Shown here: positions 1-41,387 of the stretch, piece after piece
Position numbering within the stretch: position 1 is the stretch's first letter
Layout: the number at the start of each line of letters is the position of its first letter
Assembly: GCA_033763135.1 (NCBI GenBank)
Contig: JANRKY010000148.1
Coordinates: forward strand, 2,277 to 66,276
Direction: 5' to 3'
DNA from: Blastocatellia bacterium
GTDB taxonomy: Bacteria > Acidobacteriota > Blastocatellia > RBC074
DNA: 64,000 bases
Notes under the pieces: generated by a model
Databases searched by the model: none
What the model was told of the DNA's origin: nothing
Seen by the model: only the letters and a program-made list of their open reading frames with translations
Made by a program: the position numbers and the translations under genes

Positions 1-337
1 TCGCCCCGAAAGATCGACCACGGCGCGCGCCAGCGTCTCGTCCATCGGCACATAGGCCTGCCCATAGCGAACGATTCCCTTCTTGTCGCCGAGCGCGGCG
101 GCAAAGGCCTGGCCCAGACAGATCGCGATATCCTCGACCGAATGATGATCGTCGATCTCGAGGTCGCCCTTGCACGCGACTTCGAGATCGAACAGGCCGT
201 GCCGCGCCGTCAGATCGAGCATATGATCGAGAAAGGGCACGCCGGAATCGATCCGCCCCTCGCCCGAACCATCGAGATCGAGCGCGACGCGAATGTCGGT
301 CTCTTTTGTCTTTCGTCTGATCTCCGCTTTTCGCATA
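1..337 (-). CDS. hisB: imidazoleglycerol-phosphate dehydratase, N-terminal part (gene continues past window start)
   Basis: Own translation of the minus strand from the ATG at 337: [56 protein letters not shown], a typical HisB N-terminus. It lies downstream of hisC in the same orientation. Confidence 0.8.
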
Positions 338-350
338 GAACGTCGATTCC

Positions 351-689
351 TCACCGCAAAAGGCGAGGTTCTCCCAGCAAAATGGCCTTTCCATATTGAG
401 CATCGAGAATCGGCTGCCGGATTTCCGGGAGGTGCTTCTCGATTTCAGGCAGGGAGTTTCGAAAGACGCGAATGACGACAAAGCCGAGAGAAATGGAGGA
501 GATGTCCTGTTGAAAGCGTTGTCCCTTGTCCACGATAAGGAAAACGTCAAAGACCTCCTGCGCCTCTCGCAGCAGTTCCCCGTTGGTCAACTTCCCCCAG
601 CCTGTTTCGGAAGTGTGACTGACCGCTCCCAAATCGAGAAGATGCTTTTTCAGCGGCCTCGGCACGCAGTGATCCAACAGAATATTCAT
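351..689 (-). CDS. DUF5615 family PIN-like protein (putative toxin of DUF433/DUF5615 pair)
   Basis: 112-aa ORF beginning [28 protein letters not shown]. It overlaps the upstream DUF433 gene by 4 bp (ATGA), suggesting translational coupling. Confidence 0.65.
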
Positions 690-952
690 CGAAAAAGCGT
701 CTCCTGAAGCTCATTCAAAAATCGACGAACGACATCCTTCTCGATTCCGAAATGATCGGCAAAGGTATCGATGCTTTCTCCGTCTTCCAGATAATCGAAG
801 AGCGCATCGACCGGAACGCGTGTCCCGGCAAAGGTCGGCCTTCCCCACAAAACATCGGAAGATTGAGAAATCAGCGTACTGTCATATTCACGCCGATAGG
901 CAACCGTGGGCTCTCCCGAAATGACTTCTTCCACAATACTGATATTCGCCAT
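686..952 (-). CDS. DUF433 domain protein (putative antitoxin partner)
   Basis: 88-aa ORF containing GRPTFAGTRVPVDALFDYLEDGESIDTFADHFG, a DUF433-like core. It sits immediately upstream of the DUF5615 gene. Confidence 0.65.
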   Translation of the reverse strand: MANISIVEEVISGEPTVAYRREYDSTLISQSSDVLWGRPTFAGTRVPVDALFDYLEDGESIDTFADHFGIEKDVVRRFLNELQETLFR

Positions 953-980
953 ATTGCCTCCTTTTGCGCCAGTATACCAC

Positions 981-2060
981 TCACCGTTGGGAGAACAGCT
1001 GTCTGAGCTCCGCGAGCAGTTTCTGGTTCTCTTCCGGCGTTCCGACGCTGATGCGCACGCAGTCCGCGAGCATGGGCGCGGAGCTGATGTCTCGAATCAG
1101 GATCCCCCGGGCGTGAAGCGCCTGGAAGAGCTCTTTGGGCGCAATCGTCGTTCGCACACAGAAGAAGTTGGCGGCCGACGGAATGGGCGTGAGGCCGTCG
1201 ATCTTCTGCAGTTCAGCGAAGAGCCGGTCGCGTTCGGCGCGCATCTTCTCGACGAGCGGCTGCAGCAGGGCGAGATTCTCCAGGGCCGTCTCGGCGACCA
1301 TGGCCGAAAAGAAGTTGAGGCTGTAGGGCATCTTCGCCTTGTTGAACTCGCGAATCAGCGCCGGCGACGCCAGACAGTATCCGACGCGCAGCCCGCCCAT
1401 CGCCATGGCCTTGGAGAAGGTCCGCAGAATGACCATGTTCTCGTGTTCGCGAAGCAGCGCGACGAAGTCCTCGCCGCCAATTTCGAGATAGGCCTGATCG
1501 ACGACGACGATGCCGGGGCTGTTGCGCGCGATCGTCGCCAGATCGCGCGGGCTGATCGTGCAGCCCGTCGGGTTGTTCGGCGAACAGATGATCGTCAGAT
1601 CGGCCTTGCTCGTGACGACCTTGCTGGCCAGCCGCGGAAAGTTGAAGGTCAGATCCTCATTGAGCGCGACCGGAATGATCTCCCCGCCCGCGACTCGCAC
1701 CACCTGCTGATAGACCGAAAAGGTCGGCTCCGGCAGCACGACCCGCACGCCCTTCTCCACAATCGAATTGACGACCGACTGGATCATCTCGTTCGAGCCG
1801 TTGCCGGCCATGACGCCCTCGGGCATCCAGCCGGCATAAGCGGCGAGTTGCTCCAACAGCGTCGTCGGGACGAACTCCGGATACCGCGCCCAGTCATAGC
1901 GCATGGCGCGCATCATGACCTTCTCTTTCAACACGAACGGCATCCCGAACGGATTCTCGTTCTGATTCATCTTGACCGGCGCTTCCAGCGGCGCCAGCGT
2001 GTACGCGCTGATTGCGCGGACATTCGGTTTGATCTTGTCGAGAGGGGAGCCCATGGTCAT
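981..2060 (-). CDS. hisC: histidinol-phosphate aminotransferase
   Basis: 359 aa with the MNQNENPFG motif and class II aminotransferase layout. Its start overlaps the hisD stop by 4 bp. Confidence 0.9.
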   Translation of the reverse strand: MTMGSPLDKIKPNVRAISAYTLAPLEAPVKMNQNENPFGMPFVLKEKVMMRAMRYDWARYPEFVPTTLLEQLAAYAGWMPEGVMAGNGSNEMIQSVVNSIVEKGVRVVLPEPTFSVYQQVVRVAGGEIIPVALNEDLTFNFPRLASKVVTSKADLTIICSPNNPTGCTISPRDLATIARNSPGIVVVDQAYLEIGGEDFVALLREHENMVILRTFSKAMAMGGLRVGYCLASPALIREFNKAKMPYSLNFFSAMVAETALENLALLQPLVEKMRAERDRLFAELQKIDGLTPIPSAANFFCVRTTIAPKELFQALHARGILIRDISSAPMLADCVRISVGTPEENQKLLAELRQLFSQR

Positions 2061-3352
2061 TCGTACCGGATCGTCGCCGCGCGCGCGTGGGCCTCGAACC
2101 CCTCCGCGAGCGCGAGCCGTTCAATGGAGGCCGCGGTCCGCATCAATTCTTCCCGCGTGTAGCGAATGATGCTCGTCCGCTTCAGAAAATCGTAGACGCC
2201 GAGCGCCGAGGAGAAGCGCGCCGTCCCGCCCGTGGGCAGGACGTGATTGGTGCCGGCGAAATAGTCGCCGACGGGCTCGGGCGACCAGGGGCCGACAAAG
2301 ATTGCGCCCGCGTGCCGGAGCGCGGCGGCGGTGGCTTCGCTGTCGGCGGTGATGACCTCGACATGTTCCGGCGCGATCTCATCGGACAGCCGGCAGGCGG
2401 CGGCGAGCGAATCGACGACGATCAGCGCGCCGTAATCGGCCAGCGAACGCTCGACGATCGCGCGACGCGAGAGCGTCGCCGTCTGCCGGATCAGCTCTTC
2501 GCGAACGGCGTTCGCGAGGGCTTCGCTCGGCGTGATCAGAATCGCGGCCGCATCTTCCGAATGCTCCGCCTGCGAGAGCAGATCGGCGGCGACGAAATCC
2601 GCCCGCGCCGTGTCGTCCGCGATCACGACGATCTCGCTCGGCCCCGCGATCGAATCGATGTCCACCATCCCGTAGACCAGTTTCTTGGTCGCCGCGACCC
2701 AGCTGTTTCCGGGGCCGACGATCTTGTCGACGCGCGGAATCGAGGCCGTCCCGCAGGCCAGCGCCGCGACGGCCTGGGCCCCGCCGATCGTATAGACCTC
2801 GAACAATCCCAGCTCATTCAACACCGCGGCGATGACCGGGTTCTGGCGAAACTGCGCGGGCGGCGTGACGACGACGATGCGCTCCACGCCGGCGACCTGC
2901 GCGGGGATGGCGTTCATCATCACCGTCGAGGGATAGGCCGCGGTCCCGCCCGGAACATAGAGGCCGACGATCTCCAGCGGACGCACCCGCTGTCCGAGCC
3001 GGACGCCGTTTTCGCGCGGGATCTCCCAGTCCTTCGTCAACTGATGTTCGTGATAATGCCGGATGTTGCCGATGGCTTCGCGCATGGCCGCGATCAACTC
3101 GTCATCGACCTGCGCGGCGAGCGCCTCGATCTCGGCCCGCTCGACGCGCAGCGTCGCCGGCGTCAGCGCGACCCCGTCGAATCGCGCGGTGAATTCGATC
3201 AACGCGTCATCGCCCCGCTCGCGGATCTCGCGAAGAATCGCGTCCGCGCGGGTGAGAATGTCGCTGTTGAGCCCGATTCCGCGGTTCAGAATCCGGCTGA
3301 TCTTTGCTTCCCCCTTCGCGGAGGTTCCGGCGAACTTCAAGATATCGATCAT
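2057..3352 (-). CDS. hisD: histidinol dehydrogenase
   Basis: 431 aa with conserved HisD blocks (IVDIDSIAGPSEIVVIAD, HSEDAAAILITPS). Confidence 0.9.
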   Translation of the reverse strand: MIDILKFAGTSAKGEAKISRILNRGIGLNSDILTRADAILREIRERGDDALIEFTARFDGVALTPATLRVERAEIEALAAQVDDELIAAMREAIGNIRHYHEHQLTKDWEIPRENGVRLGQRVRPLEIVGLYVPGGTAAYPSTVMMNAIPAQVAGVERIVVVTPPAQFRQNPVIAAVLNELGLFEVYTIGGAQAVAALACGTASIPRVDKIVGPGNSWVAATKKLVYGMVDIDSIAGPSEIVVIADDTARADFVAADLLSQAEHSEDAAAILITPSEALANAVREELIRQTATLSRRAIVERSLADYGALIVVDSLAAACRLSDEIAPEHVEVITADSEATAAALRHAGAIFVGPWSPEPVGDYFAGTNHVLPTGGTARFSSALGVYDFLKRTSIIRYTREELMRTAASIERLALAEGFEAHARAATIRYE

Positions 3353-3402: not shown

Positions 3403-3452
3403 CCACGGGGAGCACGGGGAAAAACCCATCTTTTCCCCGTGCTCCCCGTGGT
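3403..3452. repeat. CACGGGG-unit palindromic element, copy A (ccacggggagcacgggga .. tccccgtgctccccgtgg)
   Basis: Perfect 18-bp inverted repeat in the hisG-hisD intergenic region. Related copies lie at 26557..26631 and 35300..35345. Confidence 0.85.
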
Positions 3453-3504
3453 TCATCTTCTCGTGTCTAAATGTGCCTGGGCCTGATTTAACGCCCAGGC
3501 CCGC

Positions 3505-4138
<634 letters not shown>

Positions 4139-4152
<14 letters not shown>

Positions 4153-5293
4153 GGATCTTCACCCTCTTCTCTTGCTCGCGCAGGCCGCGCGCCTGCCGAA
4201 ACGCATTCGCGAGATCGCCCTCGCACGAAACCGGCGGCGCGCCGTTCGCGCCGAGCTCCGGCGGCGGCGAGGCGTTTCGCGCGACCGCGCCGACCAGCCC
4301 GTCGAGCGCAAAGGAGAATCCGACGGCCGGCTCCGCCTCGCCGAAATTGCCGATCAGGTTGTCATAGCGGCCGCCGCCCCCGATCTCGACGCCCCAGTGG
4401 GGAACATACACCTTGAAGGTCAGCCCCGTGTAATATTCGAGGCCGCCCGTGTCGCCGAGGTCGATATCGAAATTCTCCGCGAGCCCGAGCTCGGTCAGCG
4501 TCGCATAGATCCGCGCCAGGTGATCGATCGCCTCCCGGGAGCGCTGATTGAGCAGGATCTCCCGGGCCCGCTGAATCGCATCCTCCTTGCCCGCAAGCTG
4601 AATCAGGCGACTGAACCCCGCGCGGCGCGCCGGCTCGATCTGCGCGGCGTGGGCCTGCAGAAAGCGGTCGAGCGCCAGACTGTTTCGCCGGTCGATCAGC
4701 TCGCGAAGCTCCGCGCGCCGCCCCGCGTCGAGCGTCAGAAAATCGGCCACGCCATTGAAAAAATCGACGTGGGAGAGCGCGATCCGAAATCCCCGCAGGC
4801 CGAGCGACGAGAGCACCTCGGCGGCCACCAGCAGCACCTCGATGTCGGCGACGATGTCCGGCTGCCCGATATGCTCGACGCCCAGCTGATAGAACTCCCG
4901 CGCCGCCCGCTCCGTCGGCTCGTCATACCGAAAGACCTCGCCGGAATAACAGAGCCGCACCGGACGCGGCTTCCGCTTGAACCGCGTGGCCACCGTCCGC
5001 GCGACCAGCGACGTCAGCTCCGGTCGCAGCGCCAGCAGCGCCCCGTCGCGATCGACGAATCGATAGGTCCGCTCCGCCTTCTCGTCGCCCATCCCGCGCG
5101 CGAACAGATCGTGATAATCGAACATCGGCAGGATGATCTCGTCGTACGACCAGCCCGCGAAGATCTCCATCGCGCGCCGCTCGACGTGTCGGCGCAGCTT
5201 CACTTCCTCATCGAAGAAATATTGCACCCCGGCCGGAATTTTGGTGAGTGATGACATACGATCGCTTTCAAAACGGTCTGTCCACGAAGTCAC
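4139..5293 (-). CDS. hisZ: ATP phosphoribosyltransferase regulatory subunit (HisRS-like)
   Basis: 384-aa HisRS paralog lacking an anticodon-binding domain, next to short-form hisG. The true start is probably the ATG at about 5255 (MSSLTKIPAGVQYF). The upstream extension to the GTG at 5293 is encoded by the CACGAAG palindrome arm. Confidence 0.8.
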
Positions 5294-10467: not shown

Positions 10468-10672
10468 ATGGCATCCTCTGCAAAGCTATTGATTGTCCGG
10501 GGCTGATTTCTTCTGGTGAAGATCGTTTACGTGAATACGTTCGCGGGGGAGCTGACCGTTCGATTATAGTCGAGATCCTCTTTCAGGCGGTACCGTTTTC
10601 TTCAGGAAAATTCCCGCCTCCTCCTGCAAAGAAAGAAAGAGAGGCTCTTTGGGAATTGCCGTGCAACCAGAA

Positions 10673-10845
10673 GAGGTCCCGGTCGCTTACGCTCCCGGTA
10701 CTGCATAGCCGAACGCTCCCGGTACTGCATAGCCGAAGAGATTGATGCGGTACCGGGAGCGTAAGCGACCGGAATATTGTGCAAGCGGCCACGAATAGAG
10801 GTCCCGGTCGCTTACGCTCCCGGTACTGCATAGCCGAAGCCGAAA
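10673..10845. repeat. 38-nt direct repeats (gtcccggtcgcttacgctcccggtactgcatagccgaa, two copies) flanking an inverted copy (ggtaccgggagcgtaagcgaccgg)
   Basis: Direct copies at 10678..10715 and 10801..10838, with a partial duplicate at 10713..10737 and the inverted segment at 10751..10774. The central segment can pair with either flank. Confidence 0.8.
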
Positions 10846-10866
10846 AGAGAAGGCTAAAAAGGAGAA

Positions 10867-11234
10867 GGGCTCGAAGTGCCTCACTCACTTCGAGCCCTGA
10901 TGCGATTCTCACACTTTGAAAGGCTGGTGATCGTTTTTGGAGATTGCCGGTCGGTAGCCTCACTCTACCAACGGCCTCGATCACCGTTCTTGGGACCTTA
11001 CACGCCCTTCCCCACCCAAAGTTCCCGGATCTTTCTGATTTTTTTGGGAGGGCCGCGCCACACTGTCTTCACTGACAACCGACAACCGACAACCGACAAC
11101 CGACAACCGACAACCGGCACCCCCAAAAAGTGTAAGGGCTTGATGGCGCCTCACTCGCCATCAAGCCCAAATGCGAACTTCTTTACGGAAGGACAGTGAT
11201 CATTTGGCCGCTATCGAGTACCCTCACTGTACTC
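10867..11234 (+). ncRNA. candidate structured non-coding RNA / hairpin array: four stem-loops sharing loop CCTCACT (10867..10897, 10946..10975, 11136..11168, 11215..11234)
   Basis: gggctcgaagtg-CCTCACT-cacttcgagccc; gccggtcggtag-CCTCACT-ctaccaacggc; gggcttgatggcg-CCTCACT-cgccatcaagccc; gagtac-(c)CCTCACT-gtactc. The loop is identical while the stems differ yet remain complementary. The transcribed strand is unknown. Confidence 0.35.
11074..11116. repeat. tandem heptamer repeat (CAACCGA)x6
   Basis: gacaaccgacaaccgacaaccgacaaccgacaaccgacaaccggc, in the topA upstream region. The same unit forms the inverted element at 49878..49999. Confidence 0.9.
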
Positions 11235-18156: not shown

Positions 18157-18573
18157 TCAAGGCCCCTCTTCCTGATAAGGGCCAAGATAGAGCGCGGCGT
18201 CGTAATCCACTACAGCCAGACGAACCTTCTGCAGCCACCCCTCCCGCCCTAAAAGATTACGTGGCAGACCGTAGTCGGCAGCGAAGTAGACAACCGAATC
18301 GAACTCCAACCCAAGCGTGGTGAGCGTGACGGCGTGACCAAATGCGGTGAGCGAGCCGGCCAGCGTATTGAAGATGCGGCGATGGCCTGTTTCGATATCA
18401 ACGCCCAGAGCCTCCGCAATCTCTCGCATGAAAAGGCACACCTGCCCGCCAGTATCAATCTTGGCCAGACAAATAATGGAAGTAGCTCCAAAACCAAGAC
18501 GCGCTTCTATCGTAATGCCCTCAAGTCGCGTGTCGTAGCTTTCACGGGCGGCAAAGGCAAGTTGATGCGACAT
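18157..18573 (-). CDS. retropepsin-like (clan AA) aspartyl protease, putative
   Basis: Probable start MSHQLAF at 18573. Contains AKIDTGGQV, which resembles the D-T/S-G-A/G active-site motif. The gene lies in a locally low-GC segment. Confidence 0.5.
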   Translation of the reverse strand: MSHQLAFAARESYDTRLEGITIEARLGFGATSIICLAKIDTGGQVCLFMREIAEALGVDIETGHRRIFNTLAGSLTAFGHAVTLTTLGLEFDSVVYFAADYGLPRNLLGREGWLQKVRLAVVDYDAALYLGPYQEEGP

Positions 18574-18575
18574 AG

Positions 18576-18995
18576 TCAAAGAATGAACGGAGGCGCATCG
18601 CTGGGTTCGACCAAAACCAGCAGCGCATCTAAATGGCCCGCATCTTGCGCGGCCCGGTGAACGGCCTTGGCATTTGTGCCGTGACTGACGAGGCGCCCGA
18701 ATTTGAGCGCGACCCATTGCCCGGCGTACTCATCACGATGATCCGCCAGCCATTGTCGATCAGCGCTAAAGTCACGCAGTTCAGCCGCTCGCACCGATCC
18801 GCTACGGCCCTCCAGTCCCTGAGTGTCATTAATTTCTGTAGAAACATATTGACTCTCTGATTCATCGGGCTCAGGCTGAATACTCGAGCCTCCTTGTTCA
18901 AGTAGATCAGCCAGGCGTTTAATGAGTTTGACTTGCTCGCTTGCCGAGAGTTGCTGCACCTGGTTCATGATCAAATCGAGTTGATTAACAGCCAT
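18576..18995 (-). CDS. hypothetical protein, partner of the aspartyl protease (possible antitoxin-like or DUF protein)
   Basis: 139 aa. A strong Shine-Dalgarno sequence AAGGAGGTG lies 6 nt upstream of the ATG at 18995. Its stop abuts the protease start. The gene is low in GC. Confidence 0.5.
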   Translation of the reverse strand: MAVNQLDLIMNQVQQLSASEQVKLIKRLADLLEQGGSSIQPEPDESESQYVSTEINDTQGLEGRSGSVRAAELRDFSADRQWLADHRDEYAGQWVALKFGRLVSHGTNAKAVHRAAQDAGHLDALLVLVEPSDAPPFIL

Positions 18996-26556: not shown

Positions 26557-26631
26557 GGGGACACGGGGAACACGGGGATCAATCCTCATCGAAGCCCCGT
26601 GTTCCCCGTGCTCCCCGTGGTTGATTTCTCT
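26557..26631. repeat. CACGGGG-unit palindromic element, copy B
   Basis: ggggacacggggaacacgggg .. ccccgtgttccccgtgctccccgtgg, between DUF948 and ytxH. It ends in the same ccccgtgctccccgtggtt core as copy A. Confidence 0.85.
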
Positions 26632-35299: not shown

Positions 35300-35345
35300 T
35301 CAACCACGGGGAGCACGGGGATCAACCATTATCGTGCCCCCGCGC
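35300..35345. repeat. CACGGGG-unit element, partial copy C
   Basis: caaccacggggagcacggggatcaacc at the 3' end of birA. Only one arm is well conserved. Confidence 0.6.
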
Positions 35346-40089: not shown

Positions 40090-40191
40090 ATGAAAATTTA
40101 TCCTGGTGAGAGCCTCAGGGACCTGACAAAGAAGGAGGAAGTGATTGCGCCGGCCCATCTTCCCGAAATGCAGCGAGACGCGGGCAACTGA
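40090..40191 (+). CDS. candidate small ORF (33 aa), MKIYPGESLRDLTKKEEVIAPAHLPEMQRDAGN
   Basis: AAGGAG occurs 7-8 nt upstream. A strong rho-independent terminator lies 40 nt downstream (40233..40270). No homology can be assessed. Confidence 0.25.
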   Translation: MKIYPGESLRDLTKKEEVIAPAHLPEMQRDAGN

Positions 40192-40232
40192 CCCTGCGCC
40201 GCAACGAGTTACCACAACGTCCATCAGCCATT

Positions 40233-40270
40233 CCCGCCGCCGTTCTTCACCAACGGCGGCGGGTTATTTT
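40233..40270 (+). terminator. rho-independent terminator (cccgccgccgtt-cttcacc-aacggcggcggg-ttatttt)
   Basis: Perfect 12-bp GC-rich stem with a 7-nt loop and a U-rich tail. It lies downstream of the candidate 33-aa ORF. Confidence 0.7.
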
Positions 40271-40290
40271 CCGGCTTACAGCCGTTTTCA

Positions 40291-40448
40291 AATGCATGCG
40301 ACCTGGTTCGCAATCAAGAAGAAGAAAAACGGAACAAACAGAAAGAACGGAACAAACGGAGCCTGCGATTGTAGGGCTCCGTTTGTTCCGTCTTTTCCGT
40401 TTGTTCCGTTTTTCTTCTTCCGATGCGGGCGATCAGGTCGCATGCAAT
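40291..40448. repeat. about 155-bp near-perfect palindrome built from GGAACAAAC units
   Basis: Outer arms aaatgcatgcgacctg / caggtcgcatgcaatt. Inner arms gaagaagaaaaacggaacaaacagaaagaacggaacaaacggagcc / ggctccgtttgttccgtcttttccgtttgttccgtttttcttcttc. The loop is tgcgattgtagg. Confidence 0.9.
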
Positions 40449-40499
40449 TGAAAAGCGCTTTAAATCAGGCCCAAAAACTGGGGCCCGATTTAGAAGGAT

Positions 40500-41387
40500 T
40501 CACGCCATCTTGATCTTGAAGCTGATGTCCACGGCGGGCGCGGAATGGGTAAGCGCCCCGATGGAGATGAGATCGACGCCGGCTTCGGCATAGGCGCGGA
40601 CGTTGGCGAGCGTGATGCCGCCGGAGGCCTCGGTCAGCGTCCGACGGTCGTCGGGTTCGCGCTGTTTGAGAATCTCGACCGCCTCGCGAACCATTTCGGG
40701 CGCCATATTGTCGAGCAGCAGAATATCGGCGCGGGCCTGGAGGGCTTCGCGAACCTGGTCGAGCGAGGCGACTTCGACCTCGATCTTGTGCAGGTGACCG
40801 ACGGTTTCCCGAGCGCGACGAACGGCCTCGGCGACGCCGCCGACCATCGCGATGTGATTGTCCTTGATGAGCACGCCGTCATCGAGCCCCAGCCGGTGGT
40901 TGTGGCCGCCGCCGGCCGTGACGGCGTACTTTTCAAGCAGCCGCAGACCGGGCGTGGTCTTGCGGGTATCGACGATCTTCGCCCCGGTCCCCGCGACGGC
41001 CTCGACATACCGGCGCGTGATCGTCGCGATCCCGGAGAGCCGCTGCAGGAAGTTGAGCGCGACGCGCTCGGCCGCGAGCAGCATCTGCGCGTCTCCCGTC
41101 ACCCGCGCGAAGACCTTTCCCTCCTTGACCTCCTCGCCGTCGGCCGCCGCCGATTCGATCTGCAGATACGGATCGAACGACGTGAAGGCCGCATCCGCGA
41201 CCTCCAGCCCTGCGAGCACCAGATCCTGCTTCGCCAGAAAGCTGCCGCGCGCCTTCAACCCCGGGCGCACGATCGCGCGCGAGGTGATGTCTCCGCGCCC
41301 CAGATCTTCATCCAGGGCCTTGTTCACCATATCGAAGATCACTTCGGGGTCGGGGGGAATGATCATTGTGTTTCGCTCTTTTTTCAT
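40500..41387 (-). CDS. nadC: nicotinate-nucleotide pyrophosphorylase (carboxylating)
   Basis: 295 aa with QPRTase blocks (DLGRGDITS, GGGHNHRLGLDDGVLIKDNH, LLLDNM). Confidence 0.9.
   Translation of the reverse strand: MKKERNTMIIPPDPEVIFDMVNKALDEDLGRGDITSRAIVRPGLKARGSFLAKQDLVLAGLEVADAAFTSFDPYLQIESAAADGEEVKEGKVFARVTGDAQMLLAAERVALNFLQRLSGIATITRRYVEAVAGTGAKIVDTRKTTPGLRLLEKYAVTAGGGHNHRLGLDDGVLIKDNHIAMVGGVAEAVRRARETVGHLHKIEVEVASLDQVREALQARADILLLDNMAPEMVREAVEILKQREPDDRRTLTEASGGITLANVRAYAEAGVDLISIGALTHSAPAVDISFKIKMA

Follow-up and report, generated by a model that had tools for sequence, protein, structure and literature searches.

A DUF433/PIN-like gene pair, probably a horizontally acquired toxin-antitoxin module, in a variable slot between hisC and hisB of a Blastocatellia lineage

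The stretch of DNA analysed here (the window; 64,000 nucleotides) comes from a soil acidobacterium (Blastocatellia) and corresponds to positions 2,277 to 66,276 of contig JANRKY010000148.1 in assembly GCA_033763135.1. Its low-coordinate end is a co-directional minus-strand array, which runs from a ThiF-family gene and a GHMP kinase gene through hisZ, hisG, hisD and hisC to two small open reading frames (ORFs) of 88 and 112 amino acids (aa) and the 5' part of hisB. The two small ORFs, which encode a DUF433 protein and a putative PIN-like protein and together resemble a type II toxin-antitoxin (TA) module, are the subject of this study. The features of the locus are given below, with GC3 denoting the GC content at third codon positions.

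4139-5293, minus strand: hisZ (Pfam tRNA-synt_His)
3505-4152, minus strand: hisG (Pfam HisG)
2057-3352, minus strand: hisD (Pfam Histidinol_dh)
981-2060, minus strand: hisC, histidinol-phosphate aminotransferase, the upstream flank of the slot (TIGR01141, E=1.3e-92; GC3 0.85)
971-979, minus strand: extended -10-like element TGgTATACT, beginning 2 nt past the hisC stop codon (putative function)
957-963, minus strand: AAGGAGG, Shine-Dalgarno (SD) sequence of the DUF433 gene, as read from the sequence
686-952, minus strand: gene for the 88-aa DUF433 protein, predicted antitoxin and DNA-binding partner (Pfam DUF433, E=1.3e-12)
351-689, minus strand: gene for the 112-aa divergent DUF5615/COG4634-type PIN-like protein, predicted toxin (homology via relatives)
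352-348, minus strand: GAGGA motif across the toxin stop codon, as read from the sequence
337-350, minus strand: 14-nt spacer from the toxin stop codon to the hisB ATG, as read from the sequence
1-336, minus strand: 5' part of hisB, imidazoleglycerol-phosphate dehydratase, the downstream flank, running off the window start (Pfam IGPD, E=3.2e-39)

The DUF433 gene and the PIN-like gene share 4 bp, ATGA (cgATGAat, 689-686), and the spacer between the hisC stop codon and the DUF433 ATG is 28 nt long, with the AAGGAGG motif inside it. A preliminary description of this stretch had given the same ORFs, with their coordinates, strand, 4-bp overlap and placement between hisC and hisB, and the ORF calls and Pfam/TIGR matches agree with it; Pfam matches likewise confirm the order hisZ-hisG-hisD that it had given upstream. 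Its hisB start, placed at 337, was off by one base, the ATG being at 336-334.

A hisC-based scan of GTDB species representatives yielded 46 Blastocatellia-type loci with hisC 51-90% identical (related loci are numbered L001, L002 and so on, and the window copy is called WIN). In about 20 of the 46, the deepest branches included, hisC and hisB were coupled directly or nearly so, mostly by an ATGA stop/start overlap, and short non-coding spacers were found at this junction in some relatives. Because most related genomes couple hisC to hisB by such an overlap, the pair is an insertion, as the preliminary description had suggested when it named the hisC-hisB spacing as the comparison to make. The opposite possibility that it had raised, a pair present in all related genomes, did not materialise, since only a minority carry it. 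The pair was found between hisC and hisB in WIN, L001/L007, L002, L020, L091, L092 and L003-L006; the last are four Logan contigs with an identical PIN-like protein that were counted as one, which gives seven independent sequences. Every member of the PIN-like subfamily found at 68% identity or above (these seven sequences) sits at this junction, and a metagenome scan for further close relatives returned two distant loci only.

In other relatives the same junction holds different cargo. A 166-aa GNAT protein is encoded there in L010, L011 and L043, a TA-like pair of DUF4258 and YgiT-type zinc-finger genes with a 4-bp overlap in L016, L021 and L028, a 185-aa ORF plus zinc finger in L036, a zinc finger alone in L037, a 160-aa zinc-ribbon membrane protein in L032 and L033, and a 369-aa DUF4351 protein in L052. 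Most of this single-gene or small-pair cargo is co-directional with the his genes and is joined on the hisC side by ATGA or GTGA overlaps or by spacers of less than 30 nt; an exception is a 3.2-kb insert in L022, the largest gene of which lies on the opposite strand. In L003-L005, the order is hisC-DUF433-PIN-83-aa YgiT zinc finger-hisB (zinc finger at 1992-2243 in L003), with a match to the DUF4258/zinc-finger cassette of L016, L021 and L028 both in the zinc-finger gene and at the right-hand junction. This arrangement suggests that the DUF433-PIN pair took the place of the toxin gene of a DUF4258 module, whose antitoxin-like gene remained as an orphan. Relatives also carry inserts at neighbouring his junctions, namely 23S_rRNA_IVP four-helix-bundle genes, a patatin-like gene or a gene for a 144-aa secreted protein at hisD|hisC, and a DUF3800 gene at hisG|hisD. 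The foreign low-GC genes at these two junctions are located at L029 2915-3274, L030 4600-4959, L046 1179-1529, L017 4563-4862, L021 4545-4979, L037 4159-4923 and L026 2665-3492.

Core-gene-flanked hotspots of horizontal transfer, and the insertion of unrelated genes into operons, are general concepts. Like such hotspots, the hisC|hisB slot is a fixed site between conserved genes with many alternative cargos that are quickly gained and lost among relatives; unlike them, it occupies a stop/start overlap within a biosynthetic operon. We tentatively propose that the his junctions, and chiefly the hisC|hisB ATGA overlap, act as intra-operon cargo slots, in which TA-like modules and small accessory genes are gained, swapped and lost. 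Exchange between strains would then probably use the his genes as homology arms, only cargo that spares the translation of downstream his genes would survive, and L003-L005 would bear the trace of an event in which one TA module ousted the toxin gene of a second. An integron-cassette origin was rejected, as spacers of 0-30 nt are too short for attC and no integrase is located nearby.

Two further observations were made during the comparison of these loci. L027, L030 and L023 have a closely related hisC, and hisB was not found within 2.5-5 kb downstream of it, where larger insertions or a rearrangement may be present. In records titled 'uncultured Heliomicrobium sp.' or 'Heliobacteriaceae' (L009, L015-L017, L019, L021, L023, L049, L052), the his genes share 73-80% identity with the window's his genes and group with Acidobacteriota metagenome-assembled genomes; the titles are probably a taxonomic mislabel of the deposited records.

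The 88-aa protein matched Pfam DUF433 (PF04255, COG2442) over residues 28-76 with 47.7 bits (cutoff 23.6; E=1.3e-12). Ahead of this core, residues 1-20 are predicted to be disordered, and the DUF433 proteins of the slot subfamily have an N-terminal extension of ~14-27 residues that is absent from relatives of 70-74 aa. An AlphaFold2 (AF2) model reached a predicted local distance difference test score (pLDDT) of 69.6 (core 70-87), and its best Foldseek matches in the PDB were 5af3 (Rv2018) and 2ga1 (Ava_0674), the two solved DUF433 proteins, with probabilities of 0.99-1.0 and weak E-values. The family profile recovered 2ga1 from the PDB at E=0.011. The model fits the three-helix DNA-binding fold of 2ga1 and 5af3. 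There is thus a likeness to Rv2018/Rv2019 (VapBC45) of Mycobacterium tuberculosis, as the DUF433 domain of Rv2018 is the top match of the model (root-mean-square deviation 1.4 Å over 52 columns, probability 1.0); unlike the 88-aa protein, Rv2018 has 241 aa with extra domains, and the match has weak E-values, at 1.6e-2 (fold) and 0.45 (sequence profile).

For the 112-aa protein, direct Pfam and NCBIfam searches gave no family above threshold, and its family was therefore called through homologues. A word-indexed search returned 13 homologues, the closest being 100% identical, and an exhaustive phmmer search reached 1920 representative clusters at E<=1e-3. At 50% identity there was one cluster, its own, and the next relative in the phmmer search was 47% identical. 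Among the aligned relatives, 49 of 60 had a DUF5615 match (E<=1e-3) and 17 of 60 a PIN_10 match, and homologues on plasmids carry the annotation 'DUF5615 family PIN-like protein'. These homologies place the protein, as a divergent member, in the COG4634/DUF5615 branch of the Mut7-C-like PINs. Of the two labels given in the preliminary description, DUF433 stands by a direct match above the Pfam cutoff, and DUF5615, which had been given too confidently, stands as a family placement via relatives, its direct match being sub-threshold. COG4634 and PIN_10 have been classed as Mut7-C-like PIN toxins, a group without a solved structure (PMC5499597). The 112-aa protein shares with COG4634/DUF5615/PIN_10 proteins (PMC5499597) the size (~105-120 aa), an N-terminal LLD motif, a (T)xD motif and obligatory DUF433 neighbours, and differs from the COG4634/DUF5615 core in its sub-threshold score and its membership of a small divergent subfamily. 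Its AF2 model is confident (pLDDT 87.9) and has an alpha/beta fold of alternating strands and helices. Of the residues conserved in the family, D6, N36, G37, D48, D54, Q60, Q61 and N78 are kept in the window protein and T52 is not; D6, N36, D48, D54 and Q60 are retained in all slot copies.

The partnership of the two genes extends beyond the slot. All the more distant relatives of the 112-aa protein that were inspected have a DUF433 gene directly upstream, often overlapping: L087, between PPK2 and gcvP; L088-L090, from Chloroherpetonaceae, between ccmC and a CcmD-like gene (L088 3781-4321); L093-L094, adjoining a MazE-PIN pair; L095, on a short contig; L096, a metagenomic contig with two tandem pairs (1228-1691 and 1979-2546); and L097. 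Cyanobacterial and other plasmids, including pSYSG of Synechocystis, carry DUF5615-annotated homologues beside DUF433, and the ATGA overlap recurs in the orthologous loci in which gene coordinates were read. The pair wedged between ccmC and ccmD is a second case of a DUF433-DUF5615 module within a conserved operon.

Several hallmarks of type II TA systems were observed. The layout consists of two small, co-directional, overlapping genes with the antitoxin gene first; the DUF433/PIN-like partnership is kept across unrelated contexts; and the distribution is patchy and mobile, with presence in two clades, absence from most relatives, foreign composition and homologues on plasmids. PIN-COG2442 pairs were predicted to be TA systems by Makarova et al. 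(PMC2701414), and a PIN-COG2442 locus of Synechocystis, VapBC10 (so classified by its authors), has been validated experimentally by Ning et al. (PMC3834315). They reported that the toxin arrests growth of Escherichia coli and that VapB10, a DUF433 protein, neutralises VapC10 by complex formation; VapB10 also binds its own promoter, which it activates, and is a substrate of degradation by ClpXP2. As in VapBC10 (ssr2962/slr1767, PMC3834315), which is bicistronic and co-transcribed, the DUF433/COG2442 gene of the window pair comes first and the small PIN-type gene second; unlike VapBC10, which is free-standing with its own promoter, the window pair is squeezed into a biosynthetic operon, with one of the operon's genes on either side. 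A homologue of the window protein (34.6% identity, E=5e-11) lies at sll8007/ssl8008 on Synechocystis pSYSG, a listed PIN-COG2442 pair (PMC4963859). A type II TA system among histidine biosynthesis genes has also been described as relBE on a river-metagenome fosmid (PMC3948609); it belongs to another TA family and is located between hisD and hisG amid several ORFs, unlike the tight intra-operon insertion described here. The earlier classification of the pair as a predicted type II TA module is borne out.

Both ORFs are real genes rather than chance ones, since their orthologues are conserved with nonsynonymous-to-synonymous rate ratios (dN/dS) of 0.09-0.28. In unsaturated comparisons, the ratio was 0.09-0.15 for the PIN-like gene and 0.10-0.28 for the DUF433 gene, which indicates purifying selection on both. 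GC falls to 0.50 over the pair in the window, and in WIN and L001 the GC3 of the pair is 0.49-0.63 vs 0.73-0.86 in the flanking his genes; in L002 and L003, whose hosts are lower in GC, the pair and the his genes have similar GC3. When GC3 was surveyed across all ORFs of the window, the inclusion of shadow ORFs made the values too noisy for a genome baseline. Synonymous divergence (dS) between WIN and L001, calculated by the Nei-Gojobori method (NG86), stood at 0.66-0.84 in the pair and at the lower 0.38-0.44 in the his genes. The mismatch in GC3 and dS is ill-fitting for a simple vertical history and could possibly be due to re-acquisition from a lower-GC relative, codon-usage constraints or NG86 bias.

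A neighbour-joining tree of HisC and HisB placed the pair in two separate clades, interleaved with empty sites and other cargo; among very close relatives in the same tree, the slot switches between GNAT and empty and between DUF4258 and empty. The ratio of PIN-like to hisC dN was ~1.1-1.9 within clades and ~1.2-1.3 between them. Because the PIN-like dN scales with that of hisC and the left junction is homologous in both clades, we favour a history in which the pair was gained once, long ago, and then repeatedly lost or replaced; alleles may also have been exchanged by recombination in the flanking his genes. A recent transfer of the pair between the clades was rejected in view of the inter-clade identity of 69-70% and the scaling of dN with the his genes. 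Independent gain from unrelated donors is unlikely, given the homologous left junction (the -10-like hexamer, the SD and a position immediately behind hisC).

Directly after the hisC stop codon, 16-18 nt ahead of the DUF433 ATG, a -10-like hexamer is present in all seven slot copies. In WIN, L001 and L092, it takes the form of the weaker TATACT with TGn ahead of it (TGnTATACT, an extended -10), and in L003, L002, L020 and L091 that of a perfect TATAAT without the TG; in L002 and L020, the TAA stop codon of hisC lies inside the TATAAT. The GGAGG core of the DUF433 SD is likewise conserved in 7/7 copies. Synonymous sites are saturated between the two slot clades, and the conservation of the -10-like hexamer and the SD therefore suggests function. 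The hexamer may represent an internal promoter carried by the cassette, in which case it would also drive hisB-hisH, and the DUF433-PIN cassette may thus donate a promoter to these distal genes. A promoter/terminator scan of 340-990 gave no terminator-like site. With spacers of 28 and 14 nt and no terminator-like site, read-through from the his operon into the pair is very likely hard to avoid, and the co-transcription that had been suggested earlier is in this respect supported by the tight packing. Dependence on the his promoter alone is not borne out, as the conserved -10-like element of the pair suggests expression independent of his. Rfam gave only spurious miRNA matches, on a palindrome.

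Taken together, the pair is probably a horizontally acquired VapBC-like type II TA module of the PIN-COG2442 class, which resides as a passenger in a variable hisC|hisB slot of one Blastocatellia lineage and takes no part in histidine synthesis or its regulation. Observed here were its insertion, homology-based family membership, invariable DUF433 pairing, purifying selection, foreign base composition, patchy distribution and the turnover of the slot. In the mechanism that we envisage, the ancestral hisC|hisB junction would be an ATGA stop/start overlap, with the slot left empty or filled by other small accessory genes in relatives. The pair would be transcribed by read-through from the his promoter and probably also from its own promoter, the DUF433 gene would be translated from its strong SD, and the PIN-like gene would be coupled to it via the ATGA. 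The 88-aa DUF433 protein would be a DNA-binding antitoxin and the 112-aa protein a toxin, presumably a metal-dependent RNase, which would be held inactive in the DUF433-PIN-like complex and freed by loss or proteolysis of DUF433. Since hisB translation would begin 14 nt on, with GAGGA over the toxin stop codon, the insert would not be polar on hisB. The module would persist as a functional passenger via addiction, some general benefit or both. Toxicity, neutralisation, RNase activity, promoter activity and co-transcription are predicted properties in this scheme. A specific link with histidine is not envisaged, because unrelated cargo occupies the same slot in sister lineages.

A number of results weigh against a TA module that is active and mobile. 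The 112-aa protein falls below the Pfam gathering score of DUF5615 (PF18480; 14.1 vs 23.8 bits, E=0.043, residues 1-45 only), and it had no significant match among solved structures in the PDB either by sequence or by its AF2 model, which agrees with the description of its group as lacking a structure (PMC5499597). The evident acidic residues of its family are two invariant ones (D6, D54) plus D48, and no more. Position 52 is T in 95% and S in 4% of 154 relatives and I in the window, and the window toxin may be weakened by this T52I substitution. For the PIN-like protein, toxicity, neutralisation and nuclease activity are predicted by extension from remote relatives, with ~35% identity to annotated DUF5615 proteins, and the likeness to VapBC10 is an analogy at the level of the PIN-COG2442 class and no proof for the slot subfamily. 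No -35 element or operator was identified by the pair, and a scan of 340-990 for the sigma-70 consensus gave nothing. PADLOC matched neither protein. Finally, the divergence of the pair tracks that of the his genes, which fits long vertical residence better than typical TA mobility.

Some of these points would also be explained if the pair were domesticated and non-toxic, with the PIN-like toxicity lost or softened and DUF433 acting mainly as a transcription factor, for example by activating an internal promoter that feeds hisB-hisH. The I52 of the window copy, the parallel divergence of pair and his genes, and the conserved -10-like hexamer immediately upstream, which would also drive hisB, are in line with this, as is the H7 found throughout the slot subfamily where the majority of relatives have E (66%), though 19% share the H. 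VapB10, as a DUF433 protein that activates its own promoter (PMC3834315), provides a precedent. The window codon 52 (534-536), near the invariant D54, differs from ACC by one C-to-T change (ATC), and I52 is confined to the window copy, whereas all five of the other copies that were compared have T52; the change could attenuate the toxin, or it could reflect an error of assembly or sequencing. Together with T52 in the copies checked, the retention of D6, N36, D48, D54 and Q60 in all copies speaks against domestication. The toxin gene (dN/dS 0.09-0.15) is moreover under selection no weaker than that on the antitoxin gene, contrary to what a dead toxin would lead one to expect, and most relatives manage without the pair. 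We therefore regard domestication as unlikely.

The roles suggested in the preliminary description, in which the pair either couples toxin expression to the regulation of the histidine operon or stabilises the locus, would amount to functional integration: the pair would be wired into the control of histidine or amino-acid starvation, with his induction or antitoxin proteolysis freeing the toxin and slowing growth, or would hold the his locus in place. Tight same-strand packing without a terminator makes co-transcription with the his genes very likely, and the pair is apparently a long resident of the site under purifying selection. However, the same slot is empty or occupied by unrelated cargo in close relatives, with a GNAT gene, DUF4258 plus a zinc finger, or a membrane protein gene in place of the pair; relatives of the pair reside in unrelated contexts (ccmC/ccmD, PPK2/gcvP, beside MazE-PIN), and the pair keeps its own -10-like element. 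Empty sites are frequent and interleaved with occupied ones among close relatives, which shows that the module is readily lost or exchanged and speaks against a stabilising effect. The specific regulatory or stabilising role is thus not supported, and we consider such integration quite unlikely. A role in anti-phage defence or abortive infection, with the his slot as a tiny defence islet, has in its favour that the slot and the neighbouring his junctions collect a second TA-like pair and GNAT, DUF3800, patatin and 23S_rRNA_IVP genes. TA-like pairs and genes of these four kinds are often found in defence or mobile contexts. A DUF433-PIN_10 pair has also been reported inside a defence island by Matelska et al. 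(PMC5499597). Nevertheless, with neither protein matched by PADLOC and no phage or integrase genes next to the slot, we judge defence to be very unlikely. The passenger TA module remains our favoured explanation; its class is already known, and its location is unusual but explicable.

With this pair, the DUF433/PIN-like (PIN-COG2442) TA class, on which experimental work is very scarce and for which a toxin structure has yet to be solved, gains a divergent subfamily from acidobacteria. The slot is the more interesting result, as it reveals recurrent exchange of small accessory genes, two TA-like families included, at core-operon junctions in one acidobacterial lineage. It provides a well-sampled natural case in which a core biosynthetic operon tolerates repeated exchange of selfish or accessory genes at one junction while tight spacing is kept, and it bears on how operons acquire unrelated genes and how chromosomal TA modules persist, with long residence and many losses. 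It also bears on genome annotation, in which genes inserted in this way should not be mistaken for members of the pathway. Expression of the distal his genes would moreover be rewired by the insert, provided that the conserved -10-like element is active.

Minor observations were made elsewhere in the window. A palindromic repeat resembling repetitive extragenic palindromic (REP) elements, CCACGGGGAGCACGGGGA...TCCCCGTGCTCCCCGTGG, is located at 3404-3450, 26562-26619 and 35305-35324; the copy between hisG and hisD has a perfect 20-bp stem with no T-tract behind it, and a second hairpin, GGGCCTGGGC...GCCCAGGC, lies just upstream of this copy (~3473-3500). Three small ORFs (10583-10984, 18157-18717 and 40145-40513) have a GC3 of ~0.51-0.54 vs ~0.8 in typical genes of the window and may be further foreign genes.

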